Origin: Candidatus Falkowbacteria bacterium
Lineage (GTDB): Bacteria > Patescibacteriota > Patescibacteriia > UBA11705 > JABHMO01
Length of the DNA: 64,000 nt
Direction: 5' to 3'
Assembly (NCBI GenBank): GCA_016214755.1
Contig: JACRNX010000031.1
Location: 18,020-82,019 of the forward strand
A model generated the notes under the pieces. The model had not been told where the DNA came from, did no database searches, and saw only the letters and a program-made list of their open reading frames with translations. Both the position numbers and the translations under genes were made by a program. Shown here in pieces: positions 24,110 to 63,972 of this stretch. Positions within the stretch are counted from its first letter, which is position 1; every line of letters begins with the position of its first letter.

Positions 24110-24160
24110 ATTAATGATTTTAAAATATTTTCCGAAGGATATAGTCCTGCCCAATTGTTT

Positions 24161-35238: not shown

Positions 35239-36049
35239 AAATTAAATTGACGGCGGCGGCAATCGCCCCGCCGCTATTATACCGAGGAATGATATATTTC
35301 ATTAAATACTCTCTATTGTTTGACAATTTGTCTTGATTAACGGTGCAATATAGACGGATTATTTTCTTTAATTGTTTAGTTTTGGACACGATGTGAATTC
35401 TTTTTTTTAATAAATTAATATCTTGGGGCAGTGGTTTTAAATAATCATCGTATAAAATAATTGTTTTATCCGTCGCCATCGCCTCAAACATCGCGGTTGA
35501 ACCAAAATCAAAAATATAAGCGTCGGCGCGATTCATGATATTGATGAATTTTCCGCTTCGGACGTATTGACAATTAGAATATCCTTTATCGCGTATATAT
35601 TCCGGCAAAGGATTATAGGCCGCGTCAGACGCTTGCAATCCTTTGATAATAAACTTTATTTTGGGAAAGAATTTAAAAACATCCACTATTCTTTGTTGTA
35701 GTTTAAATGTTTGAATGTCAGTCCAATTGCTTCTGTGCGAATTCCCATAAAGCAAACTAACGACAAATATTATCGTTGAAAATCTTTTTCTCGGAGAATG
35801 AAGGCGTTGACTTTTTTTAAATAAAGATTCGATTTTCGCCGAACCGACGCTATAAGCGTTTTGCTTTGTTTGTCGTTTAGAATAAAAATTATTTGCTTTT
35901 TTCGCTAACTCTTTATCATATGTTAAAAAAATATCTGCCGTTTTCATGTCAGTTTGTTGCGGGATAGCGTCTTCGCATAATAACGACTTACATTCCTCCA
36001 TGTTCATAGATAACTGTTGGAATATTATTGCTTTTACAAACAGCGGCAA
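35210..36049 (-). CDS. C-terminal half of a GT-B/TagF-like glycosyl- or glycerophospho-transferase (apparently split from 35988..37070)
   Basis: Begins with TTG rather than ATG. Overlaps the upstream ORF by 62 nt in the +1 frame. IFDFGSTAMFEAMATDKTIILYDDY resembles the CDP-glycerol glycerophosphotransferase / GT-B C-terminal region. Confidence 0.4.
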   Translation of the reverse strand: MPLFVKAIIFQQLSMNMEECKSLLCEDAIPQQTDMKTADIFLTYDKELAKKANNFYSKRQTKQNAYSVGSAKIESLFKKSQRLHSPRKRFSTIIFVVSLLYGNSHRSNWTDIQTFKLQQRIVDVFKFFPKIKFIIKGLQASDAAYNPLPEYIRDKGYSNCQYVRSGKFINIMNRADAYIFDFGSTAMFEAMATDKTIILYDDYLKPLPQDINLLKKRIHIVSKTKQLKKIIRLYCTVNQDKLSNNREYLMKYIIPRYNSGGAIAAAVNLIFEKIGHGKK

Positions 36050-37070
36050 TCGCCTGGCTGTTAATATTATAAACGCCGGTGGTTAATAAAATGCGGAAAT
36101 TGAATTTTGCGATTAGCTCTTTCGCTTGCGCGTGAATTTCCAACGCGCGCGGGACTGATTTAATCAGATGTTCTTTGAACGCATTTGCCACTATCGGCCA
36201 GAAATTAACAGCGCAATATGAAAATTGGTTTATGAAATTGTCATCGCGCGTTAACTTTTGCCAGACCTGTTCCCATTCCTCTTGTCGAAACGGGTTTATC
36301 GTTTTGAGTTTAATTGTCCTAAACATATTTGATAAATAAAACGGATATCGCCAATTGGCCGTATCCCAAACAATCAGTTGCTTATTTTGTTTCAAAAGAT
36401 CATTAAGAACGTATTTAAGGTCAAATGTGTAATTTAATGCCAATATTTGCGGTTTTCGCCAGCCGGACAATATGTTTTTTATTGACAAAAATTGTCGCTG
36501 AAAATAAATTTTTCTGACGATTTTATTTTGTTTCATTCTGGAAATTAGATCAGGCAACAAATTTTTTTTTCTCCGACGCGCTTTTTGCGTAATTACCGTC
36601 GGCATGGATAAACTATATTTTTTCGCAATCAACGGAACAAGGGCGCAATCATTGGTTTCTCCATTTGAAAAAAGATATATTTTTTTGATTTGGCCGCGCT
36701 TGTTGGCGAGATAGTTGTCCAATAATTTTATTCTTGTCATGACGCAAGCCAGATTTGAATAGAAATGGACGAATTCGCTTTTGTACGGGGAAAGATTCGT
36801 ATCTTTTAATGAACTTATATTGTCAATTAAATAATTATCAATGTACTCGATAATTCCCTGAAACTTTAAATAATAAAACGCTTTTTCTTTGTCAGTTAAA
36901 ATGATTTGGGAATAATTTTCAAGCGTTTCATATTTAATTTTATGGCGCTCGAGAAAATGACAGGCCTCGGCCGTTAGCGCTATCATTTGGTAACGATCTG
37001 AATCTTCGTCGTTCATTATTTTTACGGCCGATTGAATCTGTTGTTCGTTCTCGACAAAAAATATATTCAT
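35988..37070 (-). CDS. N-terminal half of the same putative GT-B/TagF-like protein (frameshifted relative to 35210..36049)
   Basis: 360-aa ORF ending ...IPTVIYEHGGM at 35988. No independent motif recognised. Paired with the downstream TTG-initiated ORF. Confidence 0.35.
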   Translation of the reverse strand: MNIFFVENEQQIQSAVKIMNDEDSDRYQMIALTAEACHFLERHKIKYETLENYSQIILTDKEKAFYYLKFQGIIEYIDNYLIDNISSLKDTNLSPYKSEFVHFYSNLACVMTRIKLLDNYLANKRGQIKKIYLFSNGETNDCALVPLIAKKYSLSMPTVITQKARRRKKNLLPDLISRMKQNKIVRKIYFQRQFLSIKNILSGWRKPQILALNYTFDLKYVLNDLLKQNKQLIVWDTANWRYPFYLSNMFRTIKLKTINPFRQEEWEQVWQKLTRDDNFINQFSYCAVNFWPIVANAFKEHLIKSVPRALEIHAQAKELIAKFNFRILLTTGVYNINSQAIAAVCKSNNIPTVIYEHGGM

Positions 37071-38971
37071 AAAGAATTTTTTCCTGCCTCTATCCGCAAG
37101 CCGAACCTTTTTTTAAAAACGTCCCGTTGCTTATAAGTGTCATCAACTTCCTGCAATGAGTGATACAGGCGAAACAAATACAGGTCATCAACATTATTAA
37201 ATTGAATCATCGGCGCGTTATAGCCTTCGCTTTTGTCTGAATATATTTTTATAAATTTATTTTTATCGCCGATTTCCATCCACTGCTCTGTCGCACCTGA
37301 ACAATGGCTGGACGTAATTAAGCTATTGGTTAAATTGTGGTGGTTTATTTCGCTTCTATTTATTTTGAATGTTTCAGCTCCGCCGCCGTTATTTGTTTTG
37401 TAATATAACGAACTTATGTCAAAACTTGTCGGAATAACTGTAATAATTCCCGAACGGATTGAACAGGGCTGATCGATAGTCAAATCAAAATCATAAATTA
37501 ATTCGATCATTGGCTCTTCCGAAGATATTCTGATTTCTTTTTTAATCCGGCCGAGCCGTGTCTTTATATCCGCTTGGATTGAATAATAGTTTATCCCGTT
37601 TATTTTAATTTGATTTGCTGTGGGAAAAATAATTTCCAAATCAGTAATCTTAGACGAGCCGAGTGGTTCAATTATCGTTCCGGCGCTGAAAAAATCCGCG
37701 GCGTATGAAATATCGTCGAAGTAGCCATGTTCTATTGTTCCAAATAGCGGTTCCTCGCTAATTTGTTTATAAATAATTTTTTCAATCGCCAGCCCCTTTC
37801 TCGCGTTCATAATCAGTTTAATAAAATCATTTTCAAATTCTAATCTGAACTTATTACGCGATAGGCGCGCGGAATTATCTTCAACGGGAATATATTTGGC
37901 GTTTTCAACTTTCGGCGTAAAAATATTTGCTGTTTTGTCCAGTTCTTCGTTAAATTGGTTCCAACGTCCTTCCTCTATGTGAGTTCTAAAATCGCTGCTC
38001 CAAAGCCAACATAATTTTCTCCAATATTCAGTGTCAACACTGTTCTTTTGCCGCAAATAATTATAAATTTTATAACATCGAGCGTTTATGTCAGCGTCAT
38101 TTCTGCCGCTTACCGCCCAGCGCGTGATATTATATTTGTCTTGTTTTTTAACCGGAATGGGAATACTTGCTGATTCTAGCGACAGGACATTATCGGCATT
38201 TAGATTTATACTCTTTTGCAAGACATCTGACGGCAGAACTAGATTAAAATTTTTAACAGAAAGAATTTGATTGAATAATTGGCTGATTCTATTCCATTCG
38301 CCGTCAGTGTGAATATTTAACTCTGTCATATATCTTCCCGGACGGAAATCAAATATCTCCGCGTCATTGCAGTACAAAGAGAAAAATCTATCTTCATCAC
38401 CCACGTTGCTTGTCAGATATTGAATATATTGGTCAAGCTCGATGTCTCCGTGCGCGTATCTTTGAAATTTTTGAAAAGCAATGCAATTATTCCAAATAAC
38501 GAGCATTGATTGTCCGGATTGATTCATTGCTCTCTGCGGATAATAGCGCCAATTTTTATCCCATTCTTTATGATTGCTATACGGATTATTCCACTCCATC
38601 ACAATCGCCTGATATCCTGTTTTAATATAATGCTCAATTAATCCGCTTGAATACGCCTGTTCGTTAACCAGCGCTGGTGCCGGAACAAGCGGCGCGATTA
38701 CCTGGGAATACCCGCTGCCAATAATTTCAACTAATCCCAAATTAACTAATTTTTTTATTTTTTCAACCAAAGTCGGCGCCAAGTTTAATAATAATTCCAA
38801 TGTTATACCGGAAAATTCGATCCCTGTCGGAATCTTGCTTTCTTCACAAAGATTGACCAGCGGCCAATAACAATTTTCAATAATCTTAATTCTGTCCTGC
38901 TCGGCAATTGACGAATACATTAAGTTCAGATGAAAAATTGTGTATAAATTTAAACGACTCATAAAGTTCAT
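37067..38971 (-). CDS. glycoside hydrolase family 57-like domain protein
   Basis: N-terminal IFHLNLMYSS...EFSGITLELL...GLVEIIGSGYSQVIAPLVP mirrors the GH57 pattern (HNHQP...HFSGPLLEW...GQLEIV..FYEPIL). The canonical HQP is replaced by LNL here. 634 aa. Confidence 0.45.
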   Translation of the reverse strand: MNFMSRLNLYTIFHLNLMYSSIAEQDRIKIIENCYWPLVNLCEESKIPTGIEFSGITLELLLNLAPTLVEKIKKLVNLGLVEIIGSGYSQVIAPLVPAPALVNEQAYSSGLIEHYIKTGYQAIVMEWNNPYSNHKEWDKNWRYYPQRAMNQSGQSMLVIWNNCIAFQKFQRYAHGDIELDQYIQYLTSNVGDEDRFFSLYCNDAEIFDFRPGRYMTELNIHTDGEWNRISQLFNQILSVKNFNLVLPSDVLQKSINLNADNVLSLESASIPIPVKKQDKYNITRWAVSGRNDADINARCYKIYNYLRQKNSVDTEYWRKLCWLWSSDFRTHIEEGRWNQFNEELDKTANIFTPKVENAKYIPVEDNSARLSRNKFRLEFENDFIKLIMNARKGLAIEKIIYKQISEEPLFGTIEHGYFDDISYAADFFSAGTIIEPLGSSKITDLEIIFPTANQIKINGINYYSIQADIKTRLGRIKKEIRISSEEPMIELIYDFDLTIDQPCSIRSGIITVIPTSFDISSLYYKTNNGGGAETFKINRSEINHHNLTNSLITSSHCSGATEQWMEIGDKNKFIKIYSDKSEGYNAPMIQFNNVDDLYLFRLYHSLQEVDDTYKQRDVFKKRFGLRIEAGKNSL

Positions 38972-40254
38972 TTGCTTGAATATTCAATCGGAGCGGCTGA
39001 AAAATATTTTCCGTTGATTTTAAATCGTATCGTGCTATAAATCTTGTCTACCAACGCTTGCGCCGCTTCACGATTCGCGCTAACGACGACAATCACGCCA
39101 GCGCGTTGGCCATGATTTTGAATCACCGGGATGTTGTCGCCAACTTTGTAAAAAAAATTCATTTTTACCACCTCCGGCATTTTTTCAATTTCCTCAACAC
39201 CAACGATTCCCTCCAACGCGCCGGCCGGAGGGAAAAAGTAACGGTTGGCCACTGCTAAATTTTTTGTTGGTTTTAATTTCTCAAAATCAACCGGTTCATC
39301 AAGCGCTATTCGCAATGCGGCTTCAACGTAATTTACGCCCGTGCCCAGCGGCACTAAACTTTCGCAAAAATCGCCGCCGCTAAGGCGCGCCGCCATTTCA
39401 ATCATCATCGGCCCTCGCGATGGATGCAGAACTACATCGCCCTTGGATACTCCTTTAACTATGCCAAACGCTCGAGCGGCTTTTTCCACTAAATCGTTCA
39501 CTTCGGCCCGCGCGCTGCTATTTAAAACGGTCGGCACCCAGCCGCCATTTTCCATAATTTGCGGCCAAAATGCTTGCATATTTTCATAAACCCTGTCGGC
39601 AAAACCCGGCGTGACGCATTTGTCTTTCGTTAAAATTGATTCTGTGCTGATTTGCAATCCGTCAAGATATTCTTCTAATTGCACTTGGCCGATTTTGGAA
39701 TTGCTTAGCGCGTATTGAAACGCTTCTTCAACTTCTTCCTGTTTTTCAATTAAGCGCACGCCGCGCGATCCCGCGCGATCAGTCGGTTTTATGATAACTT
39801 TTTTACAATTCCATTTTTGCCAGCGGTCTTTAATTTCTTGCGCTGAATTTACTAAACTAAATTGGGGAATCGGTATTCCTTTGTCGCGGAAGCGGCATTT
39901 CATTTCATATTTGTTAGTCGCAATCCGCCCCGTCTCTTCGCTCGGACCAACCCAATTAAATGCTTTCGCGATTTTCGCGATAATATGAGGAACGTCGCTT
40001 CCCATCGTCGTCACGCCGCAAACGTTGACCCCTTTATTTTTTAAATCATTGACAAATTCAATAACCTTAGGAATATCGCTAAAATTTATCGGCGCGCTGT
40101 AAGTGGCTAATTTTAAACCTGGCGCGTCGGGATTCGCGTCCAACACCGCTGTTTCGACGCCTAATTCATGCGCTGTTTTGATGATAAACAATTGATCATT
40201 GCTCGCTCCCAGCAATAAAACGCATTTGGGTTTGTTTAAAATAACTCCTGCCAT
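38968..40254 (-). CDS. ATP-grasp domain ligase (carboxylate-amine ligase-like)
   Basis: N-terminal pre-ATP-grasp Rossmann (VLLLGASNDQLFIIKTA). The central region has K/E-rich ATP-binding motifs (KVIIKPTDRAGSRGV). 428 aa. Confidence 0.6.
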   Translation of the reverse strand: MAGVILNKPKCVLLLGASNDQLFIIKTAHELGVETAVLDANPDAPGLKLATYSAPINFSDIPKVIEFVNDLKNKGVNVCGVTTMGSDVPHIIAKIAKAFNWVGPSEETGRIATNKYEMKCRFRDKGIPIPQFSLVNSAQEIKDRWQKWNCKKVIIKPTDRAGSRGVRLIEKQEEVEEAFQYALSNSKIGQVQLEEYLDGLQISTESILTKDKCVTPGFADRVYENMQAFWPQIMENGGWVPTVLNSSARAEVNDLVEKAARAFGIVKGVSKGDVVLHPSRGPMMIEMAARLSGGDFCESLVPLGTGVNYVEAALRIALDEPVDFEKLKPTKNLAVANRYFFPPAGALEGIVGVEEIEKMPEVVKMNFFYKVGDNIPVIQNHGQRAGVIVVVSANREAAQALVDKIYSTIRFKINGKYFSAAPIEYSSK

Positions 40255-42059
40255 ATTGATCTTATTTTGTTTAATGATGATTCAGCGTCAATTTTAGTAT
40301 AAAAACTTAAATAAGTTTTCGGACCAGGTTTGACAAATGCGTCAGGAATGGCAATCCTTATCAGCTTGCACGGATAATTATTGTCGCAAATCATTTCACT
40401 TATTATTGAACCGAATCCAGCGTCAATAACATTTTCTTCCATTGTAATGACATATTTTGTTTTTTGAAAAATGTTTCGCAAACTATTTTCCGGTATTGGT
40501 TTTAACCAACGGATATTAATTATGCCGAAGTTTAAATTATGAATTGCCAGCATTTTTTTTAATTCTATGGCAGTTTCCAAGCGGTTGCCAACTGCTAAAA
40601 TATAACCGACATCTCCTGGACAAATTTCTTGTAAGTCGTTTATATCCAGATTATTTGGACGATATTCATTTTCGCTTGCTGGAATATTTTCATACGGATA
40701 AAAAATAATCATCGGCCCTTGCGGATTTGTCGCTCGTTTTTCAAGAATATATTCCAAATCAAAGCTATGCCCAGGATAGAACATTTTTAAATTTGGAACG
40801 CACCTTAAATATGAAATATCATAAATACCATGGTGAGTGTGGCTGTCCAAACCGGCGAAACCCGACCGCGCCGCCAGAATGGTGACTGGCAGATTCATAA
40901 AACAAATATCATGGATAATTTGGTCAAAAGCTCTCTGCATGAAAGTTGATTGATAGCATACGAAAGGTTTGGCGCCGCTTAGCGCTAAACCGCAAGCCAT
41001 GCCGATGGCGTGCTGTTCGGCCATGCCAACGTCAATGGTTCGTTCAGAAAAATCGGCTAAGCAATTATCCAGGCCAGAAGCATAAGGCGTTGAAGGCGTT
41101 ATGACGATAATATCTTTATCTTGCCGCATCAATTTGCGCAGTTGGTCTGCCGCGACCGTCGCGTAGGTTTTTCCCGCTGGCACGGGCGAGCTGCCCTCAC
41201 CAGTCGCGGGATTAAAAGGCATAGAAAAATGCATTTTATATTTATGATTTTTGGCGATGGCCAATCCTTTTCCTTTTTCGGTTTTAACGTGAACCATGAC
41301 ACAGCCATTTTGAGACATGTCGGACGCTTGTTTAAAAGAAATTATTAAATCGCCAATATTATGGCCGTCGGGCACGGCAATATATTGATGGCCTAATCCT
41401 TCAAAATACGCGCGTGATTTTTCATGCCAGTCATCGCCTGAAAATAAATTCTTTATCCCGCCGACATTAGGCGGAATAGCCATGCCATTATCATTGATAA
41501 CCACAATCATCGACAGTTTGTCAGCTACCGTAAAATTTAGTCCTTCGGCTGACATGCCCTCGACTAATGCGCCGTCGCCGACTATCACCACTACCAGCTC
41601 CTTTTTTTGTTTTATCTTATTATTTAAAGCCATTCCGCTGGCGATTGATATGGCGGTACCGGCGTGCGAGGCGTCAATAATGTCATACTCGCTTTCTTCG
41701 CGGCAGAGAAAGCGCGACAAGCCGCCAGTTTGATTCAATGTTTTAAAAAGCTCCAGGCGGCCAGTTAACAATTTTTGAGTATATCCTTGATGCCCGGTGT
41801 CAAAAATAATTTTATCTTTTGGCGCGTCAAAAACATAATGCAAAGCAACGGTTAATTCGATTACGCCCAAATTCGCCCCGATATGGCCGCCGGTTTTAGA
41901 AATCGTTTCAATGAGAAAACAGCGAATCTCTCCGCAAAGCGCGATAAGTTCGTCAATCGCTAATTTTTTTAAATCAGCTGGATTTTGAATTTTTTCTAGA
42001 ATTGAATACATAAATAATCGCTTCAAATTTTTAGCCAAAATACATTCCTCCATTAACAT
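40236..42059 (-). CDS. 1-deoxy-D-xylulose-5-phosphate synthase-like thiamine-diphosphate-dependent enzyme (DXS/transketolase family)
   Basis: GGHIGANLGVIELTVALHYVFDAPKDKIIFDTGHQGYTQKLLTGR matches the DXS N-terminal signature almost residue for residue. ThDP-binding GDGAL...NDN motif present. ASHAGTAISIASGMA present. 607 aa. Confidence 0.8.
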   Translation of the reverse strand: MLMEECILAKNLKRLFMYSILEKIQNPADLKKLAIDELIALCGEIRCFLIETISKTGGHIGANLGVIELTVALHYVFDAPKDKIIFDTGHQGYTQKLLTGRLELFKTLNQTGGLSRFLCREESEYDIIDASHAGTAISIASGMALNNKIKQKKELVVVIVGDGALVEGMSAEGLNFTVADKLSMIVVINDNGMAIPPNVGGIKNLFSGDDWHEKSRAYFEGLGHQYIAVPDGHNIGDLIISFKQASDMSQNGCVMVHVKTEKGKGLAIAKNHKYKMHFSMPFNPATGEGSSPVPAGKTYATVAADQLRKLMRQDKDIIVITPSTPYASGLDNCLADFSERTIDVGMAEQHAIGMACGLALSGAKPFVCYQSTFMQRAFDQIIHDICFMNLPVTILAARSGFAGLDSHTHHGIYDISYLRCVPNLKMFYPGHSFDLEYILEKRATNPQGPMIIFYPYENIPASENEYRPNNLDINDLQEICPGDVGYILAVGNRLETAIELKKMLAIHNLNFGIINIRWLKPIPENSLRNIFQKTKYVITMEENVIDAGFGSIISEMICDNNYPCKLIRIAIPDAFVKPGPKTYLSFYTKIDAESSLNKIRSIWQELF

Positions 42060-42801
42060 TCAAAGTGTGTCCCGTGATAAAAGAAGCGTCGTCAGAAAGT
42101 AAAAATAACACAGCATCCGCCACTTCCTCCGGTCTGCCCATTCTACCTAACGGAATTTTTGTTTTAGCTTCCAGTTTCAATTCTTCAATCCTTTTATCAT
42201 TGAAAATTGGTGTTTCAATCCAGCCGGGCGCCACCGCGTTAGAGCGAACGCCTTGTTTGCTGGCGATCCGAGCGAGTGAACGCGTCAGACTAATAAGTGC
42301 GGCTTTGCTGGCTGCGTAATCTGACGCCAAATCGCCGCCAGTTTGTCCGCCAACGGACGAAATATTAACAATCGCATCGCCGAATTGCATTTTTGGCAAG
42401 CATTCTTGCGCCAAAATGAAAGCGCTTTTTAAATTCACCGCCAAAGTGCGATCCCATTGTTCATCCGACAGCTCAAAAAAATTACCTTGCTTTAATATGC
42501 CGGCGTTGTTGATCAAATAAGCCACCTGTTGATGCCATTTATCTTCAATCGCGCGCAACAATTCCCGAACCTGTCCGCGCGAGGAAATGTCTTTTTGCAA
42601 AATCAAAAAATCAAATAGCCCTTGTTCTTTAAGCGACTGCTCCATGTCTTTAGCCGCGAACGTGTCTTGGTTAAAACAAACAACCACTTTGGCGTTGTTT
42701 TTTAAAAGCGCGATGGCGATGGCGCGGCCGATTCCCTTGATGCCGCCGGTAACCAAGGCCACTTTGGCATTGAAATTATATTGTTTCATAGTTTTTATCA
42801 A
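42031..42801 (-). CDS. short-chain dehydrogenase/reductase (FabG-like ketoreductase)
   Basis: KVALVTGGIKGIGRAIA glycine motif, NNAG, and the YAASKAAL catalytic motif. Confidence 0.85.
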   Translation of the reverse strand: MIKTMKQYNFNAKVALVTGGIKGIGRAIAIALLKNNAKVVVCFNQDTFAAKDMEQSLKEQGLFDFLILQKDISSRGQVRELLRAIEDKWHQQVAYLINNAGILKQGNFFELSDEQWDRTLAVNLKSAFILAQECLPKMQFGDAIVNISSVGGQTGGDLASDYAASKAALISLTRSLARIASKQGVRSNAVAPGWIETPIFNDKRIEELKLEAKTKIPLGRMGRPEEVADAVLFLLSDDASFITGHTLNVNGGMYFG

Positions 42802-43957
42802 TGTTCAAAATTTTATCTGTTTGTTCTCGGCTGGCACCGTACGCCCAGGCCAAACCGGCGATCTCATCGTTGTTTTTGACAATAGAGTTCTTTTGTTCAT
42901 TATTTTTAACGAATACGCCTTCTACCGCGGCGCTTTTTAATCCGAGTAGTTCAGCCGGATTAAAAATCGTTTTCCAAGCGCCGACTTTTTCGGCTGAATA
43001 AATTTTATATTCGGCATTTGACATGTCGGCACTCACCCATTTGAAAAACTGACGCAGCGGATTAAATTCTCCGAGAAACCCCATTGTACGAACAGTAAAA
43101 ATATCACCGTGAAACCGATTAGTAATTTCATAAACGTAACATTCATTGTCGCGAATGACACAATCGGCCTTGACCGGCCCGTGCGTAATGCCTATGGCGC
43201 GCGCGCCTTGTTCAAGCAGATTATACAACGTCTGCCAGACCGCCAGCGCTAATTGCGAGGGAAAATAACCGTGATGCGGCACAAAGTATGGGAGTTGTGT
43301 AAAAAATCTGTCTCCGATGCCAGCGGGGAAAAATTTTCCCTGCCAAAAAATTCCGTTTACATCATGATGCGTGCCGCGAATATATTGTTCAACGATAACT
43401 TTTCCGTCTCTGGCATAATTGCTAGCTTGATTGAATGCCGCCTCAATTTCAAACGACTCTTTTGCCAACCCGACGCCTTGACTGCCTGAAGCGGCCGTCG
43501 GCTTGATAATGATCGGCCAACCAAAATTGACAGCAAACTTTCTGGCCTCATCTGGTTTTTGGATCACGGCCGAACGCGGACAATTGATTTTATCTAACCA
43601 TCTCTGCTTCATGAGTGCCTTATCAAGACTGCCAAGCACAGCTTCAATTGGTGAATGAAGCAAACCGAGCGCGTCAGATACGATAGCCGCTGTCAACAAG
43701 CCAAAATCACTACCGCAATGGCAGAGGCGGATATTATATTTGACATTATTTTGCAATGCCCAAGTGGTTATTCCACGAACATTCGTCGCATCAAAACTTA
43801 ACGTCAAATCAGCTTTTGCTTTACCGGGCGCATCCGCTTTTTTATCGCTGACAATAACGTGAAAACCAAGTTGTTTGGCCCAGTCAATCGCGGGCATTCC
43901 CAATTCCCCGCCGCCTAAAAACAAAATTGATTTTATGTTTTGCATGCTGATAGCCAA
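42776..43957 (-). CDS. ATP-grasp domain ligase (second paralogue)
   Basis: ILFLGGGELGMPAIDWAKQLGFHVIVSD pre-ATP-grasp domain; 393 aa. Confidence 0.6.
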   Translation of the reverse strand: MAISMQNIKSILFLGGGELGMPAIDWAKQLGFHVIVSDKKADAPGKAKADLTLSFDATNVRGITTWALQNNVKYNIRLCHCGSDFGLLTAAIVSDALGLLHSPIEAVLGSLDKALMKQRWLDKINCPRSAVIQKPDEARKFAVNFGWPIIIKPTAASGSQGVGLAKESFEIEAAFNQASNYARDGKVIVEQYIRGTHHDVNGIFWQGKFFPAGIGDRFFTQLPYFVPHHGYFPSQLALAVWQTLYNLLEQGARAIGITHGPVKADCVIRDNECYVYEITNRFHGDIFTVRTMGFLGEFNPLRQFFKWVSADMSNAEYKIYSAEKVGAWKTIFNPAELLGLKSAAVEGVFVKNNEQKNSIVKNNDEIAGLAWAYGASREQTDKILNIDKNYETI

Positions 43958-45066
43958 TGTTTGTGTAATGGATTTATCTTCAATCTTTGTTTGGCGATGA
44001 ACTTCTCCGCCGCGCGCAGATTAGCCGTGACCGTGGCGCGTTGAAAAATTTTATTTTTGGGTTGAGCGTAAATCAAAGTTGTTGGTTTGAATTTCAACGC
44101 GGTTCGTCTCAGCCTACCTTCAACGGCAAAATCAACAGCCAACTGGAAAAAATTAAATTGCGTATTTGCTTTTGGCCAGAGAACATCGGCGATCAAATCG
44201 CCGCCTAAGTCGGAGTGCAATTCAATAATATATGGTCGGCCGTCTTGATTAACGCGAAACGATAAAATTAAAATGGCGGACAGGCACGGGAATAATTTTC
44301 CAAATCGCTCGACGATTTCTATTATATCTTGCTTGACCTTAGTCTTCTCAATTATTGAAGGCACACTGACGCCAACGCCCTTGATTAAATCGTCACGAGT
44401 TACTCCCACCAGCTCATCGCAAAAACCAATGATTCGCACGCGCCCTTTTCGTACGGTAAAAAAGCAAGAAACATCAAAGCCCTCAATGTATTCTTCTATC
44501 TCAACGAAATGATTGCCAGATGCCTTTGCCGCGGCGGTAAAAGCGGCGGCTAATTGAGTTTGATTGTAAACAATCTTAACTGACTTTTTACCGACCACTG
44601 GAAAGTCCGGTTTGACGATTAACGGAAACTTTAAGGTCGTCAGATGTTCGGGATATCGTTTTGTCCTTATGTTACCGGGCATGCGCAGGCCATGCCGGCG
44701 ACAAAATATTTTCAACTTCGATTTTTCCGTGGCGAGCGGGACTATTTCCGGCGACAGGCCAACCAATTTGTATTGTTTTGCGATCCGCGCGGCTGTTTTC
44801 AAAGCAAAACCAGAGGTGCGTGCGCTCAAACCGACAAGCTGATATTTTTTCCGTAATTTTTCCAATTCTTTAATTATGCCAACGGCGTCGCGAGTGCTTT
44901 TGACGATTTTCTCAGAGGCAAAAGCGAATCCTTGCGCTTCAGGATTGCGATCAATGGCGATAACTTTATATTTCTTCGCGGCTGTTTTGACAAAAGGCAA
45001 CTGTCCGCGCCCGGCGCCAAGACAAATTATTGTTTTAGGCAATTTTTTAGTATCCGACATTCTCAT
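43933..45066 (-). CDS. ATP-grasp domain ligase (third paralogue)
   Basis: IICLGAGRGQLPFVKTAAKKYKVIAIDRN pre-ATP-grasp domain; 377 aa. Confidence 0.55.
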   Translation of the reverse strand: MRMSDTKKLPKTIICLGAGRGQLPFVKTAAKKYKVIAIDRNPEAQGFAFASEKIVKSTRDAVGIIKELEKLRKKYQLVGLSARTSGFALKTAARIAKQYKLVGLSPEIVPLATEKSKLKIFCRRHGLRMPGNIRTKRYPEHLTTLKFPLIVKPDFPVVGKKSVKIVYNQTQLAAAFTAAAKASGNHFVEIEEYIEGFDVSCFFTVRKGRVRIIGFCDELVGVTRDDLIKGVGVSVPSIIEKTKVKQDIIEIVERFGKLFPCLSAILILSFRVNQDGRPYIIELHSDLGGDLIADVLWPKANTQFNFFQLAVDFAVEGRLRRTALKFKPTTLIYAQPKNKIFQRATVTANLRAAEKFIAKQRLKINPLHKHWLSACKT

Positions 45067-46285
45067 AAATTGAAATTATTCTATCTTGCGCAACGCCTAA
45101 ATTGATTAAGGTTTTTCGCATGTCATTTTCAAACGATTGAGACGAAAGTAAAATTTTTCCGAACTCTAAACTTGATATTTGCGCTGGCGAATACACGAGA
45201 TAGCCCATTCTTTTTTTGCCATGATAATATGAATTTTTATCAATTAAGCCGCAAATAACATTTTCAAAATCAATCTGACATAACAATTCCTGCGTGTGGC
45301 AACCAGCGCCGAATATAATTAACTTTTTGCCTTTTCGTTTAAGTTCCGCCACTTCTTTTTCAATCAACAAAATTATTTTTCCCCTGACATCGTTGTTTTT
45401 TCTAAATTGACGACCGATTAACTCATTGACTTTAGATTTTGCGGAAATTATGTCTAACTTTACAGAATCATCGCCTGTTCTTTTCGGGCGGATTAAGCAG
45501 GTCAGCCATTTGCCATAATCATACCTCAGAAGATGAAAACCGGATTGATCAATTAACCAATTAAAATTTTCTAATAGATAATTGCTGGGATGGCCGGCGA
45601 ACATATCAACGAAGCCAGTTGGCGTTAAAAGAATATTGGGAATGGCAATATAGATTTGGCCATCCATTGTTAATATCTGCTTTAATCTGTTTAACTCCTC
45701 GCGCGGAAAGTCAAAATGTTCAAAAACATTATCAAGAATTATAAAATCGTATTTTCTTGACAAATCCAATTGGTCAAAGCGAATATTTTCAAATTCAAAA
45801 TAATTGTTTCCAGACAACGCTCTACCAAGCGGAAGCGAAGGGTCAATTCCTTTGGCTTGTTTAATTTTATCATGATAACAGACACAAATTTCTTTTAACA
45901 TCTTGCCGTTGCCGCAGCCTATTTCTAAAACAGAAATCGGTTCTTGCGATTCAGAAAAAAATTCATTCGCCAATTTGATAAAGGCGTTAAAATGCTGCGC
46001 CGCGCGGGCATCATTTTCTTCGGCGGATGTCTCGGCGGCGTCTATCATCGCCGAGCGATATAATTCATTAAACTGCTCGGAATCTGGATTCGGATTTTTG
46101 TAAATATGCGCGCAATCATCGCAAACAACATAATGCAGTGGCGCGCGATAAATTTCCCCGTTCGCGTCAATATATTTATAGTCAGAGTTAGAATAAAGAG
46201 ATTTAGATTTTAATGAATCGCAAACCGGGCAGTTTCGCTGGTTCATTGTGAATGTGATTTCATTATTTAATACTCTATTACTCAT
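45047..46285 (-). CDS. NDP-hexose C-methyltransferase-like (TylCIII-type three-domain architecture: Zn-ribbon + class I MTase + C-terminal domain)
   Basis: CPVCDS...CDDCAHIY zinc ribbon, VLEIGCGNGKMLKEI motif I, and a C-terminal LIIFGAGCHTQELL Rossmann-like domain. 412 aa, matching the size and organisation of sugar C-3 methyltransferases. Confidence 0.55.
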   Translation of the reverse strand: MSNRVLNNEITFTMNQRNCPVCDSLKSKSLYSNSDYKYIDANGEIYRAPLHYVVCDDCAHIYKNPNPDSEQFNELYRSAMIDAAETSAEENDARAAQHFNAFIKLANEFFSESQEPISVLEIGCGNGKMLKEICVCYHDKIKQAKGIDPSLPLGRALSGNNYFEFENIRFDQLDLSRKYDFIILDNVFEHFDFPREELNRLKQILTMDGQIYIAIPNILLTPTGFVDMFAGHPSNYLLENFNWLIDQSGFHLLRYDYGKWLTCLIRPKRTGDDSVKLDIISAKSKVNELIGRQFRKNNDVRGKIILLIEKEVAELKRKGKKLIIFGAGCHTQELLCQIDFENVICGLIDKNSYYHGKKRMGYLVYSPAQISSLEFGKILLSSQSFENDMRKTLINLGVAQDRIISIYENVGY

Positions 46286-46833
46286 ATTTGATCTTTCACT
46301 CGGATGTCTTCAAGGCCGCATTTCCACGGCTGGCCAGCGGTTTGTTTGATTTTAAATATTTTTTCAGTCGCGAATAAATATACAAATGCGCACAAAACAA
46401 GCGGCAATAAAGTTAAAAATAATGGGAGTGCTAATGCTTGTACGAGACCGATTTTAAACAAATAAAATTTGCTAATACGCTTCAGTTTCCAATCAATCGT
46501 GCAATGAAGCCAATTTTTTATGCCGAAGAATGTTAATAATAAAATTACGTTTTCAAATCCATTAATGTCAAATTGTTTATGCGGAATAATGGCGCTGTCA
46601 TAATGTTGACGTCGTATTTCCAAAATTGTCTTAATACTGATATTGCCAAAGCCGTAATCATCCTTTTCCTTGGTGCAATAAATCCGGCGGATGTTCTTTT
46701 GCGCCTGCAAAAAAGATGTTTGTTTTTTATTGTCCAACAAACAGATATCTGCTTGCGGAAATTCATTCGGCAAACTGCGCAAAAGTAGACCAAGTAAATC
46801 GCATTGAATTGTTCGAATAATCAAAATTTTCAT
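46282..46833 (-). CDS. GT9 (heptosyltransferase)-like N-terminal domain protein, truncated
   Basis: MKILIIRTIQCDLLGLLLRSLPNEFPQADICLL resembles the MKILIIRxxxxGDxxLxxP...FPxAxIdxL start of ADP-heptose:LPS heptosyltransferases. Only 183 aa with a hydrophobic C-terminus. Confidence 0.35.
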   Translation of the reverse strand: MKILIIRTIQCDLLGLLLRSLPNEFPQADICLLDNKKQTSFLQAQKNIRRIYCTKEKDDYGFGNISIKTILEIRRQHYDSAIIPHKQFDINGFENVILLLTFFGIKNWLHCTIDWKLKRISKFYLFKIGLVQALALPLFLTLLPLVLCAFVYLFATEKIFKIKQTAGQPWKCGLEDIRVKDQI

Positions 46834-54099: not shown

Positions 54100-54109
54100 A
54101 AAATTAATT

Positions 54110-55303: not shown

Positions 55304-55310
55304 ACATGAA

Positions 55311-59249: not shown

Positions 59250-61016
59250 TTATGTTATGGCTGAAATAATTCTCTCGGCTACTCTGGTCGCGCCGTTCGC
59301 ATCTATGGCGCCAACTAAACCTTTTTCAATTTGAGACATTTTTGCAAACGCGTTAAAGGTTTTGTGAAATTGTTCTTGGTCAATCTCGCCAATCAGGCCA
59401 AAATATTTAAAATTTTTTGTCTTCAAAAAATTTTTATTTAGTTTTTCTTCGTGTTGCGCTATCGCCAAAACCGGAACCTGCAAATAAAACGCTTCGTAGA
59501 TTGATTGGCCGAATCCCAATATCACGAAATGACAGCCAGCCAGCGCTTCGGCGAACGATTTGTTGTCGCCGAGAACAAAGGTATTCAGATTTAATTTATT
59601 GATTTGCCTTTTCACCTGCGATCTTTTTTTATTAAACGGGCCCAGATATACGCCGAATGGCTGTTTGAATCCCCCGTTATCCAAAAACTTTAGAATTTTC
59701 CAAGTTATGTTTTTAGGGTCAGCGCCGCCACCGCAAATTAAAACATATTTCCCCTTTTTTCTTTTTTGCCTTTTAATCTCGTTTCGGATGATCGCGTATT
59801 GCGCGCCGAAAATTATATTTTTCCATTTAAATGGAATCACGCTGTGGCCATTGGGAATAATGTACAAATCCGCGCCATTTACTTTTTTGTCTAGCCGATC
59901 AATGACAATAACCTTTCTCGCGCCACGCCTGATTTGTTTAATGCTGACATCAAACAGCGTATCAATTATTACTCCAGTAGCGTTGTTTGACTTCAAAAAA
60001 TTATAAAAATCATTTTCTGAATCTATGACAAAATAATTAAAATTATTTTCAGACAATGTCTTTTCCGTCTGTTTGTTTCGTCGGGCGACAAAAGTTATTC
60101 CGCAAAAATATTTGTCTTGCAATTCCTTGGCCAGCGCCATCATTCTTTGCAAATGGCCCAGCCCGATTTTTTCAGAAGCGTCAGTTCTGATTATAAATTT
60201 ATGACTAACGTCTATTTTTGATTTTTGCTTTACTTCCGCGTTGATCAACCACAATTTTTTGTCCTTTTTATAAAGCGCGATTACTTTATTCAGATTAATA
60301 AGCTCTTTTCGATTTTTCCATAAACGATTGTAAATTTCCCTCATAAATCGCAAGTCGGAAATTGTATCAACCGAGAGTCGGAGCATATGTTTATTAAAAG
60401 GAGCGCGCAAATTCACTTCAAACCATTTGAATTTCTCAGAATTTTCTTTTAAATAAATATTCAAATGTTCTTTATGATAGGGCTGACTCGCATTCTGATA
60501 CTGGACTTCAAGCGCGGACATCTTGCAGACATCAAGCCCTTCGTGCTGGCATTGCTGGCCACTTTTTAATTTGGCTGAATCAGCTTTTGTCTTTATCATT
60601 CCCGTGACTACATCGTCAACAAATTTTGGGTCAATCAGCGGACAATCGCCGCAAATGCCGGCAATGATGTCCGCCTTTACCCATTTCGCCGCGGCCAGAA
60701 CGCGACCGACGACATCGTTGATATCGCCGTGATAACGAAAAACTCTGTAACCTATATTTTTGACATATTTTGCCAGCGGATTATCGGTTTTATCGCTCGA
60801 AGTAGCTAAAATTATTTCATCAATCGTTTTAGTTCTTTTTAAACGATCAAAAATATGCCAAATCATCGGTCGGCCGTTGATATCAATTAATGCTTTGCCC
60901 GGCAAGCGCGAGGATGACATTCTCGCCCTGACGATAGCTACAACCCGTGTTCTTTTTTCCATATGTCTCTTGTTTTTAACAATGGCCGCAATCCATCGCT
61001 CGGGTCTGCCCGCCAT
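59250..61016 (-). CDS. fusion: SpsF/PseF-like cytidylyltransferase + PseG-like UDP-sugar hydrolase (UDP-2,4-diacetamido-2,4,6-trideoxy-L-altropyranose hydrolase family)
   Basis: N-terminal VVAIVRARMSSSRLPGKALIDINGRPMIWH (CTP_transf_3 family). Central-to-C-terminal IIRTDASEKIGLGHLQRMMALAKEL resembles the PseG signature (IRADAS..G.GH..RC..LA). Overlaps the upstream NeuB-like gene by 79 nt; the alternative internal Met at 60962 reduces this to 25 nt. Confidence 0.65.
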   Translation of the reverse strand: MAGRPERWIAAIVKNKRHMEKRTRVVAIVRARMSSSRLPGKALIDINGRPMIWHIFDRLKRTKTIDEIILATSSDKTDNPLAKYVKNIGYRVFRYHGDINDVVGRVLAAAKWVKADIIAGICGDCPLIDPKFVDDVVTGMIKTKADSAKLKSGQQCQHEGLDVCKMSALEVQYQNASQPYHKEHLNIYLKENSEKFKWFEVNLRAPFNKHMLRLSVDTISDLRFMREIYNRLWKNRKELINLNKVIALYKKDKKLWLINAEVKQKSKIDVSHKFIIRTDASEKIGLGHLQRMMALAKELQDKYFCGITFVARRNKQTEKTLSENNFNYFVIDSENDFYNFLKSNNATGVIIDTLFDVSIKQIRRGARKVIVIDRLDKKVNGADLYIIPNGHSVIPFKWKNIIFGAQYAIIRNEIKRQKRKKGKYVLICGGGADPKNITWKILKFLDNGGFKQPFGVYLGPFNKKRSQVKRQINKLNLNTFVLGDNKSFAEALAGCHFVILGFGQSIYEAFYLQVPVLAIAQHEEKLNKNFLKTKNFKYFGLIGEIDQEQFHKTFNAFAKMSQIEKGLVGAIDANGATRVAERIISAIT

Positions 61017-61828
61017 TCACGGTCAATTGATTCGCTTTCCTTGCAACGTTTCACTCCGTCGCCGTCGCTAAGGGTGTAATCAGCTGTCAAATTAACATCT
61101 GCCTTGATGTCTCGGATAACTTTTTCAATTTGTTCCGGAAGCCAATTATATCCGCGCGCGAATTCTTCCCCTTTTCCGTCCAAATCCAAATGGAATTCTA
61201 TGCTTGAGGCCTGCCATCTAAACGCGGCGCGCGACAAAACTTTTTCATCAACGCTGTGATCTGACCAGCCGGCCAAACAGTTAAACATTTTTCTGTATGT
61301 TTCCAAGACCGACAAATTGCATTCAGCCGCCGGCGCGGGATAACTGGACACGCAATGGTACAAGGTGATTTCTTTGGCGTCGGATTTTTTTAAAATATTA
61401 ACTGCCTTAGCCACTTCTTCAGTATTGGCCATTCCTGTCGCGAGTTTAATCGGTTTTCCTGTCCACGCGCATTTTTTCAACAATCCCTCCCAAAGAATTT
61501 CGTATGACGCGATTTTAAAATAATCAACATAAGGCGCGAGAATATCCACTGCTTTCTGATAAAACGGCGTGCAGGCGAATTTCAATCCCAACCCGTGGCA
61601 TTCATCAGCCAATTTTGGAATAAATTCAACGGGCAATTCCCATTTTTTCCGGCTGCGATGCTCCTCGCTTGTGGCCAATATCTCGGACGCGAAAAGTTCG
61701 TCAATTTTAAATAATTGGAATTTAACGCCGTCGCAGCCGATTTTTTTCGCGATTTGGATAAATTCCAGACAGCGGCCGAGATTCTGGCTGTGATTGCTTG
61801 AAACTTCGGCGATGAATTCAACATTCAT
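60938..61828 (-). CDS. NeuB-family nonulosonic acid synthase (pseudaminic acid synthase PseI-like), lacking an obvious C-terminal SAF domain
   Basis: IAEVSSNHSQNLGRCLEFIQIAKKIGCDGVKFQ matches the NeuB/PseI/SpsE N-terminal TIM-barrel signature (AE.S.NH.G....A..MI..A...GADAVKFQ). Confidence 0.7.
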   Translation of the reverse strand: MNVEFIAEVSSNHSQNLGRCLEFIQIAKKIGCDGVKFQLFKIDELFASEILATSEEHRSRKKWELPVEFIPKLADECHGLGLKFACTPFYQKAVDILAPYVDYFKIASYEILWEGLLKKCAWTGKPIKLATGMANTEEVAKAVNILKKSDAKEITLYHCVSSYPAPAAECNLSVLETYRKMFNCLAGWSDHSVDEKVLSRAAFRWQASSIEFHLDLDGKGEEFARGYNWLPEQIEKVIRDIKADVNLTADYTLSDGDGVKRCKESESIDREWRADPSDGLRPLLKTRDIWKKEHGL

Positions 61829-61832
61829 AAAA

Positions 61833-63002
61833 TTAACAAAACTTTTTTATTATTGATTTCACATTCTCAATCAAATAACCTTGCTCATCGTCAGTCAATG
61901 AATAATAAATCGGCAAGCTAACGCATTCAGAATAATATCGGTCGGCGTTAATATATTTTTCAGCGTCATAACCTAATTTTTGGTAATACGAATTGCGATT
62001 GATCGGACGATAATGAATTTGCACTTTTATATTTTTCTCATGCAATTCGTCAAAAATTTGGCGGCGCTTGCTGATTAAATAATCATCGGCCAAACGCAAT
62101 ATATAAAGATGCCAAGCCGGATTGTATTTGCCTAAATCATAAAACGGCAATTTTATTCTAGGCTGTAATTCTGCAAAGGCCTCATTATATCGTTCGGCTA
62201 TCATCCGCCGTCTATTTAAAAACAATCCGACTTTTTTTAATTGGGAAATGCCCAGCGCGCACTGAAAATCAGTTAACCGATAATTGAATCCCAATTCGCG
62301 CATATCATAGCACCAAGCGCCTTCAGCCGCTGTCTCCTCATCTTTATAAATACCGTGACTGCGCAGCGCGCATAATTTTTCATATAATTTTTCACCATTG
62401 GTTGTAATCATTCCACCCTCACCGGTTGTCATGAGTTTCACCGGATGAAAACTAAACACCGCCATGTCTGAATGTTCGCAACTGCCGACTTTATGCCATT
62501 TCCCGTCCGCGAAATAATCCGCGCCCAGCGCGTGGCAAGCGTCTTCAATCACGATTAATTTATTCTTTTGGGCGGTTTCATAAATGCTGGGCAAATCAGC
62601 GGGCAATCCAGCAAAATGGACAGGAATAACCGCTTTGGTTTTTTCAGTGATTTTGTTTTGAATCTGCTTCGGGTCAATATTTATATTATTATAATCAATA
62701 TCAGCGAATATCGGCTTAGCGCCGACGTATAAAAGGCAATTCGCGGTCGCGACAAAACTGATCGGCGTGGTAATCGCTTCGTCGCCATACTCGAAACCAG
62801 CGGCTAACGCGGCGAGATGGAGCGCCGCCGTGCCCGATGAGACCGCAATCGCGAATTTTACGCCGCAATATTCAGCGAACGCGTTTTCAAATTCTTTAAC
62901 CCTTGGCCCTTGGGTCAGCCAATCTGAACGGATAACTTCAATCGCGAAATTAACATCCGAATTATCAATAAATTGTTTGCCGTACGGTATTATTTTGTCC
63001 AT
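61833..63002 (-). CDS. pseC: UDP-4-amino-4,6-dideoxy-N-acetyl-beta-L-altrosamine transaminase (PseC-type DegT aminotransferase)
   Basis: IPYGKQFIDNSDVNFAIEVIRSDWLTQGPRVKEFE near the N-terminus is the PseC-type signature. Fold-type I aminotransferase, 389 aa. Overlaps pseB by 38 nt. Confidence 0.8.
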   Translation of the reverse strand: MDKIIPYGKQFIDNSDVNFAIEVIRSDWLTQGPRVKEFENAFAEYCGVKFAIAVSSGTAALHLAALAAGFEYGDEAITTPISFVATANCLLYVGAKPIFADIDYNNINIDPKQIQNKITEKTKAVIPVHFAGLPADLPSIYETAQKNKLIVIEDACHALGADYFADGKWHKVGSCEHSDMAVFSFHPVKLMTTGEGGMITTNGEKLYEKLCALRSHGIYKDEETAAEGAWCYDMRELGFNYRLTDFQCALGISQLKKVGLFLNRRRMIAERYNEAFAELQPRIKLPFYDLGKYNPAWHLYILRLADDYLISKRRQIFDELHEKNIKVQIHYRPINRNSYYQKLGYDAEKYINADRYYSECVSLPIYYSLTDDEQGYLIENVKSIIKKFC

Positions 63003-63972
63003 TTTCGTATTTGTAAATAATATGCCTCAATTCTTCATCAGAAAGCCAGCGATCGTTATTGTTGCTGTGATATCCCTCAAAATCTTCGGGCAAAGATTTT
63101 TCATCATTGGCAACCGGACCGAAATGAGCCGCCAACGGCCTCATAACGAACCGATCTGCTTTTTCAAACGTGTATCTCGCGTCATCCGCGGTCACAAGCG
63201 TCTCGTGCAATTTCTCGCCCGGTCTTATGCCCGTGATTTTAATTTCCGAATTAGGCGCGATCGCTTTGGCGAGATCAACGACGCGCATGCTCGACAATTT
63301 AGGCACGAAAACCTCTCCTCCGCTCATCATGCCCAAACAATTAATCACAAATTCAACTCCTTGCTCCAATTGTATCCAAAATCGCGTCATTCTAACGTCA
63401 GTCACGGGAATGGGCAATCCTTGCATTTTACATTCGTGAAAAAATGGAATCACGCTGCCGCGCGAACCGAACACATTGCCATAGCGTACGACGCTGAACA
63501 TCGTTCTGTTTGGACAAAATTTATTGGCCGCGATGAATATCTTTTCAGCGCACAATTTCGTCGCGCCATACAAATTCACCGGACTCGCCGCTTTGTCAGT
63601 GCTGATGGCGATAACCTTTTCAACATTTTTATCAATGGCGGCGTTAATTACATTTTGCGTGCCGATTATATTTGTCCTAACCGCTTCAAACGGATTATAT
63701 TCCGCGGTTGGAACTATTTTAAAAGCCGCCGCGTGAATCACAATGTCAACATCATCAAAGGCGCGATGCAATCTTTCCGGATCGCGGATGTCGCCGATGA
63801 AAAATCTCACGTCAGCGTGTTTGAATTTTTCCGCCATTTCATACTGTTTCATTTCGTCGCGGCTGAAGATAATGAGTTTCTTCGGGCGATACTTGGACAG
63901 GACAATTTCCGTGAATTTTTGTCCGAACGAACCGGTCCCGCCGGTTATTAGTACGACCTTATGGTCAAGCAT
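62965..63972 (-). CDS. pseB: UDP-N-acetylglucosamine 4,6-dehydratase (inverting), PseB/FlaA1
   Basis: VLITGGTGSFGQKF, RFFIGDIRD, HAAAFKIVPTAEYNPFEAVRTNIIGTQNVI and ISTDKAASPVNLYGATKLCAEK are near-canonical PseB/FlaA1 motifs. Confidence 0.9.
   Translation of the reverse strand: MLDHKVVLITGGTGSFGQKFTEIVLSKYRPKKLIIFSRDEMKQYEMAEKFKHADVRFFIGDIRDPERLHRAFDDVDIVIHAAAFKIVPTAEYNPFEAVRTNIIGTQNVINAAIDKNVEKVIAISTDKAASPVNLYGATKLCAEKIFIAANKFCPNRTMFSVVRYGNVFGSRGSVIPFFHECKMQGLPIPVTDVRMTRFWIQLEQGVEFVINCLGMMSGGEVFVPKLSSMRVVDLAKAIAPNSEIKITGIRPGEKLHETLVTADDARYTFEKADRFVMRPLAAHFGPVANDEKSLPEDFEGYHSNNNDRWLSDEELRHIIYKYENGQNNTVRQTIY

Follow-up and report, generated by a model that had tools for sequence, protein, structure and literature searches.

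The window analysed here is a stretch of 64,000 nucleotides from a Candidatus Falkowbacteria bacterium (GenBank assembly GCA_016214755.1, contig JACRNX010000031.1, positions 18,020 to 82,019 of the forward strand). It is one long minus-strand glycan locus with a GC content of about 0.40. Five open reading frames (ORFs) at window positions 38968 to 45066, all on the minus strand and with overlapping or nearly abutting ends, encode a thiamine diphosphate (ThDP) enzyme with the fold of 1-deoxy-D-xylulose 5-phosphate (DXP) synthase (DXS), a short-chain dehydrogenase/reductase (SDR) and three ATP-grasp ligases. The DXS-fold enzyme, called DXSL below, is the main subject of this study. A preliminary description of the locus had already listed this gene set, and the ORFs, Pfam domains and motifs confirmed it. 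It had missed the actual unit, which consists of the SDR, the DXS-like enzyme and a LAL-type ATP-grasp, mostly accompanied by a GH57-like protein and a methyltransferase, and which acts with PseB, PseC, NeuB and a PseF-PseG fusion.

DXSL (40236..42011, minus strand) has 591 aa. The mechanical ORF reaches 42059; alignment with homologues places the start most probably at M17 (MYSILEK, window position 42011), which lies 19 nt past the SDR stop. Its Pfam domains are DXP_synthase_N (1.4e-80), Transket_pyr (2.9e-30) and Transketolase_C (3.3e-17), so that the scaffold is that of DXS and not of acetolactate synthase (ALS), as described before. The motifs TGGHIGANLGVIELTVALH, GDGAL and INDNGMA were found. 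The SDR (42031..42801, minus strand) is a classical FabG-like or acetoacetyl-reductase-like enzyme (adh_short_C2, 4e-63) with the motifs TGGIKGIG, NNAG and YAASK. It scored 219.6 bits against the NCBIfam FabG subfamily NF009466, just below the cut-off of 222, and 218.3 bits against TIGR01830, below the cut-off of 297.75. It is proposed to be a 3-oxo reductase.

The start of the core ATP-grasp carboxylate-amine ligase, AG_LAL (38968..40254, minus strand), overlaps the DXSL stop. Family classification placed the ATP-grasps in the L-amino-acid ligase (LAL) type. AG_LAL carries a LAL_C2 domain (1.1e-15) in addition to ATP-grasp_3 (1.3e-11), and the other two carry an ATP-grasp domain only. These are an accessory ligase of 393 aa (42776..43957, minus strand; ATP-grasp_4, 1.5e-10) and an accessory divergent ATP-grasp-like protein of 377 aa (43933..45066, minus strand; ATP-grasp_3, 9e-07; PDB 4DIM, 3.8e-10). 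The pairwise identity among the three is about 25%, as in distant paralogues. The best PDB match of all three is 4DIM, an uncharacterised structural-genomics protein, followed by the L-amino-acid ligases 3VOT and 4WD3. The ATP-grasp fold, and LAL_C2 in the case of AG_LAL, are shared with known ligases (BL00235/3VOT, RizA/4WD3, BacD, DdaF and Cj1438), but the sequence similarity is low (E values from 1e-15 to 1e-9). The formation of amides on sugars by ATP-grasp enzymes has a precedent in capsule loci, namely Cj1438 of C. jejuni.

All databases name DXSL as DXS because its score exceeds the family cut-offs. The scores were 528.1 bits against TIGR00204 (cut-off 465.95) and 506 bits against NF003933 (cut-off 395). 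All of the ThDP and pyruvate residues are also present. A genuine DXP synthase, either the housekeeping enzyme or one that provides the locus with extra DXP (say, to make pyridoxal phosphate or ThDP cofactors), had to be considered on these grounds. For comparison, 121 clade members (the 120 best database matches and one further locus, L005) were aligned with 66 canonical DXS sequences, which were loci from a scan of genome contigs with the DXSL protein together with E. coli dxs. Apart from L005, the contig scan returned almost solely canonical DXS at 34–40% identity. The identity of DXSL is 50–66% to its own clade and 33–40% to canonical DXS, and the clade is monophyletic in a neighbour-joining tree. 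In an exhaustive search of 1.84 billion representatives, the clade collapsed to one 50% cluster (718 bits), and about a dozen more divergent DXS-like representatives with the same Q392/Y478 signature ranked before canonical DXS.

DXSL shares with canonical DXS the three-domain fold, the GDG...NDN ThDP motif and the GGH motif. In E. coli numbering, H49, H80, D152, N181, H299, E370, R398, R420, D427 and H431 are invariant in DXSL and its clade. In contrast, Y392 is replaced by Q, R478 by Y and R99 by N in 121 of 121 clade members, whereas Y392 and R/K478 are present in 66 of 66 canonical sequences and R99 in 65 of 66. D419 is changed to V, A or S in the clade, and further switched positions are 106, 124, 157, 288, 300, 346 and 475. 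The signature codons in the window are those of Q354 (40950-40952), Y440 (40692-40694) and N93 (41733-41735), which correspond to E. coli Y392, R478 and R99, respectively. A shortened "spoon-fork" loop (75 versus 111 residues) was also considered as a diagnostic of the clade and was dropped, as some canonical DXS share it.

The D-GAP (D-glyceraldehyde 3-phosphate) pocket of DXP synthase (DXPS) is formed by R420, R478 and Y392, according to the Freel Meyers laboratory (PMC11019550). In the same work, R99 belongs to a network gating decarboxylation, and the R478A exchange alone raised Km(D-GAP) to 1.4 mM (PMC11019550). In DXSL, R420 is retained and the other two of the three pocket residues are replaced. 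The conservation of all GAP-binding residues, which would have pointed to an ordinary DXS, was thus not observed.

The genomic context was compared between 79 canonical dxs loci and eight paralogue loci. The eight loci are from Shewanella baltica (L001), Aliarcobacter cryaerophilus, a metagenomic contig (L087), Sulfurimonas, a JGI contig, S. waksmanii (L090), Psychromonas and L005. A LAL-type ATP-grasp neighbour was found at none of the 79 canonical loci and at all eight paralogue loci. The corresponding counts were 0/79 and 7/8 for a GH57-like neighbour, 1/79 and 6/8 for NeuB, and 4/79 and 8/8 for an SDR. The SDR, DXSL and the LAL-type ATP-grasp are contiguous in each of the eight, as they are at 38968-42801 in the window. 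Usual companions are a GH57-like gene of about 640 aa and methyltransferases of about 400 aa. The related loci all lie within pseudaminic acid (Pse) gene sets, whose members are PseB, PseC, a short NeuB and a large cytidylyltransferase. The metagenomic contig L087 is syntenic with window positions 35210-45066, both extra ATP-grasps included. Of the related loci, L087 (64%), S. waksmanii L090 (32%) and L089 are the only ones with an orthologue of the 42776..43957 ATP-grasp, and the 43933..45066 ATP-grasp has orthologues in L087 (66%), L090 (34%) and L089 (31%).

The clade spans Gammaproteobacteria, Campylobacterota, Omnitrophota and metagenome-assembled genomes (MAGs) labelled Falkowbacteria, of the candidate phyla radiation (CPR), and Methanobacteriota, which is archaeal. 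In no case does it share the genomic surroundings of canonical dxs. Shewanella and Campylobacterota are known to have a canonical dxs already, so that DXSL would be an extra, second copy there. No MEP (methylerythritol phosphate) pathway gene was found among the window ORFs. The housekeeping reading was rejected on the residues and the genomic context, in agreement with the preliminary description, which had doubted it and had asked for the phylogeny given above. A genuine DXP synthase of either kind is extremely improbable, given that no clade member retains R478, Y392 or R99 and that a member also occurs in an archaeal-labelled MAG. DXSL is probably not an enzyme of isoprenoid or vitamin synthesis but a member of a widespread, mislabelled sister family. 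That it is a ThDP carboligase for Pse tailoring rather than a MEP enzyme is, in our judgement, very probable.

The archaeal-labelled locus L005 (PBGS01000056.1), binned as a Methanobacteriota archaeon, contains a NeuB, DXS-like, SDR, ATP-grasp and GH57-like set at 52% identity. Either the set reached archaea by horizontal transfer or the contig was binned wrongly.

The Pse genes of the window lie 15–20 kb from the cassette, all on the minus strand. PseB (62965..63972), the inverting UDP-GlcNAc 4,6-dehydratase, scored 473 bits against TIGR03589 (above the cut-off of 408), and the PseC aminotransferase (61833..63002) scored 472 bits against TIGR03588 (above 423). The short NeuB/PseI-like nonulosonate synthase of 296 aa (60938..61828; NeuB, 2.9e-54) reached 156 bits against the PseI model, for which the cut-off is 340, and the Pfam and PseI matches span only residues ~5–244. 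It is 54–58% identical to the NeuB of the Shewanella cassette loci. The fourth gene (59250..61016) encodes a cytidylyltransferase (CTP_transf_3) fused to a PseG-like C-terminal domain, with a weak Glyco_trans_1_3 match. The best model matches of its cytidylyltransferase domain are KdsB-like, and its PseG-like domain scored 107 bits against TIGR03590 over residues 273–520, where the cut-off is 154. A comparable large protein of 566–574 aa is present in the Shewanella loci. Compared with the canonical pathway PseB-C-H-G-I-F of Campylobacter and Helicobacter, the window shares PseB and PseC at the equivalog level and has putative PseG-, PseI- and PseF-like functions, but no PseH was found in it, its short NeuB is below the PseI cut-off, and its cytidylyltransferase is fused to the PseG-like domain.

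As described before, the window contains five sugar-type aminotransferases (four DegT and one class I/II fusion) and no recognised acetyltransferase. No GNAT or hexapeptide acetyltransferase and no PseH was found among window ORFs of at least 150 aa, with Pfam at E ≤ 1 for ORFs without other matches; one ORF of 183 aa is left without assignment. Likewise, no PseH or GNAT was recorded in seven of the eight related loci. L087 is the exception, with an Antibiotic_NAT (AAC(3)-type) acetyltransferase gene. The earlier suggestion that the ATP-grasps supply the N-acyl groups fits the equivalog-level PseB and PseC and the missing PseH. The cassette also contains no acyl carrier protein (ACP) and no coenzyme A (CoA) ligase. 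No flagellar or Maf gene was found in the 64 kb; Wzx-, Wzy- and Wzz-like genes are present instead. The window is a Wzx/Wzy-type polysaccharide locus, whereas the Shewanella, Aliarcobacter, Sulfurimonas and Psychromonas loci are Maf-type flagellin glycosylation islands.

A cassette of this type is already known genetically. The sfmABCDE genes of S. oneidensis are required for flagellin modification (Bubendorfer et al. 2013, PMC3765264), and the operon encodes a NeuB-like protein, a 581-aa thiamine pyrophosphate (TPP) enzyme named "ilvB", a FabG-like SDR, a 395-aa methyltransferase and a 412-aa ATP-grasp (PMC3765264). The window shares with sfm the short NeuB, the ThDP enzyme, the FabG-like SDR, a methyltransferase of about 400 aa and the LAL-type ATP-grasp, together with adjoining PseB, PseC, large cytidylyltransferase and GH57-like genes and the lack of PseH. 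On the other hand, the ThDP enzyme of sfm is of the ALS/pyruvate oxidase (POX) type and that of the window has the DXS fold, and sfm serves flagellin through Maf (GlfM-associated), while the window, which has two extra ATP-grasps, is a Wzx/Wzy locus. Searches of the literature for DXS paralogues at glycan or flagellin loci, and for N-acylation of Pse by ATP-grasps, gave nothing relevant, and the DXS-fold variant is considered new. In S. oneidensis, flagellin carries a Pse-like nonulosonic acid of 274 Da with a single N-acetyl group and two nitrogens, one of them non-acetylated (PMC3765264). In strain MR-1 it bears a nitrogen-free, oxygen-rich substituent, C9H16O7, with 0–2 O-methyl groups (PMC3765264). 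A 2023 preprint still terms the MR-1 product an atypical Pse derivative of 538/524 Da. The formula C9H16O7 allows one C=O or one ring and is compatible with a saturated polyhydroxy-acyl group. A unique split into building blocks was sought, and several combinations fit.

A natural exchange of the two ThDP folds was found in Shewanella. In S. xiamenensis (L093), the gene sizes are identical to those of MR-1 sfmABCDE, and the ThDP enzyme is of the ALS/POX type (TPP_enzyme_N/M/C). The flanks of L093 and S. baltica L001 are 69–85% identical (NeuB 85%, two methyltransferases 77% and 83%, GH57-like 69%). The centre consists of the ALS-type enzyme, the SDR, the 395-aa methyltransferase and the ATP-grasp in L093, and of the DXS-type enzyme, the SDR and the ATP-grasp in S. 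baltica, from which the 395-aa methyltransferase is missing. The two SDRs are 41% identical and the two ATP-grasps 39%; the window proteins are 35% (SDR) and 36% (ATP-grasp) identical to those of the sfm-type locus. Two ThDP folds therefore alternate at one Shewanella position with a co-diverged SDR and ATP-grasp, and this is the strongest argument that DXSL is a carboligase serving Pse tailoring. The swap probably creates strain-specific flagellin glycans.

For the DXSL-SDR pair, the preliminary description had proposed a role like that of YerE/YerF, in which a hydroxyethyl or acetyl branch would be placed on an NDP-4-keto-6-deoxyhexose. YerE and YerF serve the synthesis of yersiniose, a branched-chain sugar of Yersinia pseudotuberculosis; YerE, a flavoenzyme of the ALS type, acts on CDP-4-keto-3,6-dideoxyhexose. 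The logic would be the same, with a ThDP carboligase transferring a C2 unit from pyruvate and then a ketoreductase, in a glycan locus. Moreover, the Shewanella analogue uses an ALS/POX-type enzyme, which is YerE's family, and PseB supplies the pathway with a 4-keto sugar. However, the window differs in its DXS scaffold, for which ketone acceptors are not known, in its link to the Pse pathway and in its obligatory ATP-grasp, to which a C-branch would give no role. The 4-keto group would be consumed by PseC, which accompanies PseB in five of the eight related loci and in the window. Furthermore, in S. oneidensis, where the cassette is analogous, the core sugar contains two nitrogens, and its mass is that of Pse with one N-acetyl group rather than that of a C-branched sugar (PMC3765264). 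The YerE/YerF proposal was not supported by this comparison and is quite improbable.

The cassette is accompanied by further genes on the minus strand. A GH57-like (glycoside hydrolase family 57) protein of 634 aa (37067..38971) gave a weak match to Pfam GH57, and its profile matched 1K1W, the GH57 4-α-glucanotransferase of T. litoralis, with E=2.5e-8. In the alignment of its orthologues, the nucleophile E104 and the acid/base D203 (DxExF motif) are invariant and aligned to the catalytic residues of 1K1W. For its ~350 C-terminal residues, no homologue was detected. Directly upstream of the cassette, an S-adenosylmethionine (SAM) methyltransferase of 412 aa (45047..46285; Methyltransf_23, 3.4e-17) shows weak identity of 20–23% to the methyltransferases of L089, L090 and the sfm-type locus. 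It is probably the O-methyltransferase of the cassette. In the 183-aa ORF without a family match (46282-46833), the secondary structure follows a Rossmann-like pattern at the N-terminus and includes a hydrophobic helix at the C-terminus; no orthologue was found across the related loci. Single-sequence AlphaFold models of this ORF, as a candidate hidden PseH, and of the GH57-like protein were unusable, with predicted local distance difference test (pLDDT) values of 48 and 34, respectively. Between the cassette and the Pse genes there are a block of heptose and radical-SAM genes and then an IS630-type transposase.

Most likely, DXSL takes part in the synthesis of an unusual side group of pseudaminic acid. 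In the proposed pathway, DXSL would decarboxylate pyruvate to hydroxyethylidene-ThDP, as suggested by its conserved residues, and would join the C2 unit to an acceptor other than GAP, such as glyoxylate or a 2-oxo acid, to give a 2-hydroxy-3-oxo acid. A small carbonyl carboxylate is favoured as the acceptor because an anion could be bound by R420 and by the Arg at E. coli position 106 that is specific to the clade. Since the FabG-like family consists of 3-oxo reductases, the SDR would reduce the 3-oxo group of the carboligation product to a hydroxyl, and one or more methyltransferases may O-methylate the product. The LAL-type ATP-grasp would then activate the free carboxylate as an acyl phosphate and link the acyl group as an amide to the 4-amino group of UDP-4-amino-4,6-dideoxy-L-AltNAc, which is the PseC product, or to a later equivalent amine. 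ATP-grasps of the amino-acid-ligase type require just such a free carboxylate and, as its partner, an amine. The obvious candidate is the amine made by PseC, which PseH acetylates in canonical pathways and for which no PseH was found here. As the cassette has neither ACP nor CoA ligase, a free acid and an ATP-grasp would be an economical route. The PseG-like domain, NeuB and the cytidylyltransferase would complete and activate the modified nonulosonic acid, and in some lineages the two extra ATP-grasps may attach additional units through amide bonds. The product of the window would enter a Wzx/Wzy-type surface polysaccharide, while the cassettes of Shewanella, Aliarcobacter, Sulfurimonas and Psychromonas would serve Maf-dependent flagellin glycosylation. 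The MR-1 glycan, with one non-acetylated nitrogen and a substituent formula allowing exactly one C=O, fits this N-acyl scheme. That the cassette (37067-46285) and the Pse genes (59250-63972) together form a variant Pse pathway, in which N-acetylation by PseH is replaced by the attachment of a custom acyl group, has roughly even chances in our assessment.

Several points weigh against the N-acyl scheme. The acceptor substrate and the product are purely inferred. The retention of R420, D427 and H431 would also suit an anionic, possibly phosphorylated, acceptor. The outer moiety of the MR-1 glycan is easily lost in-source (PMC3765264), as would be expected of a glycosidic or ester bond more than of an amide, and the sfmE (ATP-grasp) mutant was slightly different from the sfmA-D mutants (PMC3765264). 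The C9 substituent of MR-1 is bigger than the C4–C5 acid expected from pyruvate and glyoxylate or pyruvate. The scheme gives no role to the conserved GH57-like protein, and PseH could lie elsewhere in the genome.

An alternative is that a sugar is extended or branched and no acid is made. In that case, DXSL would move the pyruvate-derived C2 unit onto the aldehyde group of an aldose or of its phosphate (for example heptose 7-phosphate), or onto a keto-sugar, and the SDR would reduce the new ketone. The product would be a 1-deoxy-ulose or a C-(1-hydroxyethyl) higher sugar on the nonulosonic acid, and the ATP-grasps would act elsewhere. DXS and transketolase chemistry naturally takes aldose phosphates, and DXSL retains R420, D427 and H431. 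By our arithmetic, C9H16O7 equals heptose plus C2H4O minus water, and the group is readily lost, as a glycoside would be. GmhA-, HddA- and HddC/GmhB-like heptose genes are located 2–10 kb upstream of the window cassette, and the GH57-like partner retains its glycosidase catalytic residues. However, the loci of Shewanella, Aliarcobacter, Sulfurimonas and Psychromonas showed no heptose genes at distances of up to 10 kb from the cassette. The invariant carboxylate-amine ligase would be left without a substrate, and R478 and Y392 of the D-GAP pocket are lost. We consider the extension or branching of a sugar doubtful. A broader reading is that repeated recruitment of the DXS fold, interchangeable in this role with the ALS fold, gave rise to a new class of ThDP carboligase building an undescribed Pse substituent. 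In its boldest form, an aldose such as heptose would be extended by two carbons to a higher sugar of the 1-deoxy-nonulose type, which would also explain C9H16O7. This reading is unlikely as a whole.

Other features of the window were also noted. A set of the GDP-heptose type is encoded at 47768-48367 and 53059-56309 (minus strand), with a GmhA-like SIS protein, an HddA-like GHMP kinase, an HddC-GmhB fusion and an epimerase; every window match to heptose-specific equivalog models was below the cut-off. Two overlapping ORFs at 57152-58206 (HTH_33/HTH_23 and DDE_3) are the only plus-strand genes in that part and set the Pse genes apart from the remainder of the locus. They resemble an IS630-family transposase interrupted by a frameshift. 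Three B12-binding radical-SAM proteins are encoded on the minus strand (48382-51024, 51021-53087 and 21686-24154), and two of them are unusual fusions, with a DegT aminotransferase (880 aa) and with an NAD-epimerase/dehydratase (822 aa). These proteins point to sugar nucleotides that are C-methylated or rearranged. A CTP_transf_3 cytidylyltransferase is fused to a HisC/CobD-like class I/II aminotransferase at 24161-26086 (minus strand, 641 aa) and is similar to enzymes for the synthesis and activation of amino-alcohol phosphate substituents. Two radical-SAM/SPASM proteins (30915-31943 and 32638-33606, minus strand) are interleaved with methyltransferases. A Wzx/Wzy/Wzz-type locus of about 60 kb is typical of much larger genomes, yet the source MAG is a Candidatus Falkowbacteria (CPR), which puts either binning or biology in question.

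The mislabelling of the DXSL family can corrupt reconstructions of the MEP pathway and surveys of DXPS as a drug target. For enzymology, the family would be a natural DXS scaffold with a non-GAP acceptor site, a kind of change that DXPS enzymologists probe only by mutagenesis. The proposed pathway provides a testable hypothesis for the diversification of Pse without PseH and bears on the flagellin glycan of S. oneidensis, which has been unsolved since 2013. The natural cassette swaps between close Shewanella genomes offer an easy experimental handle on it.

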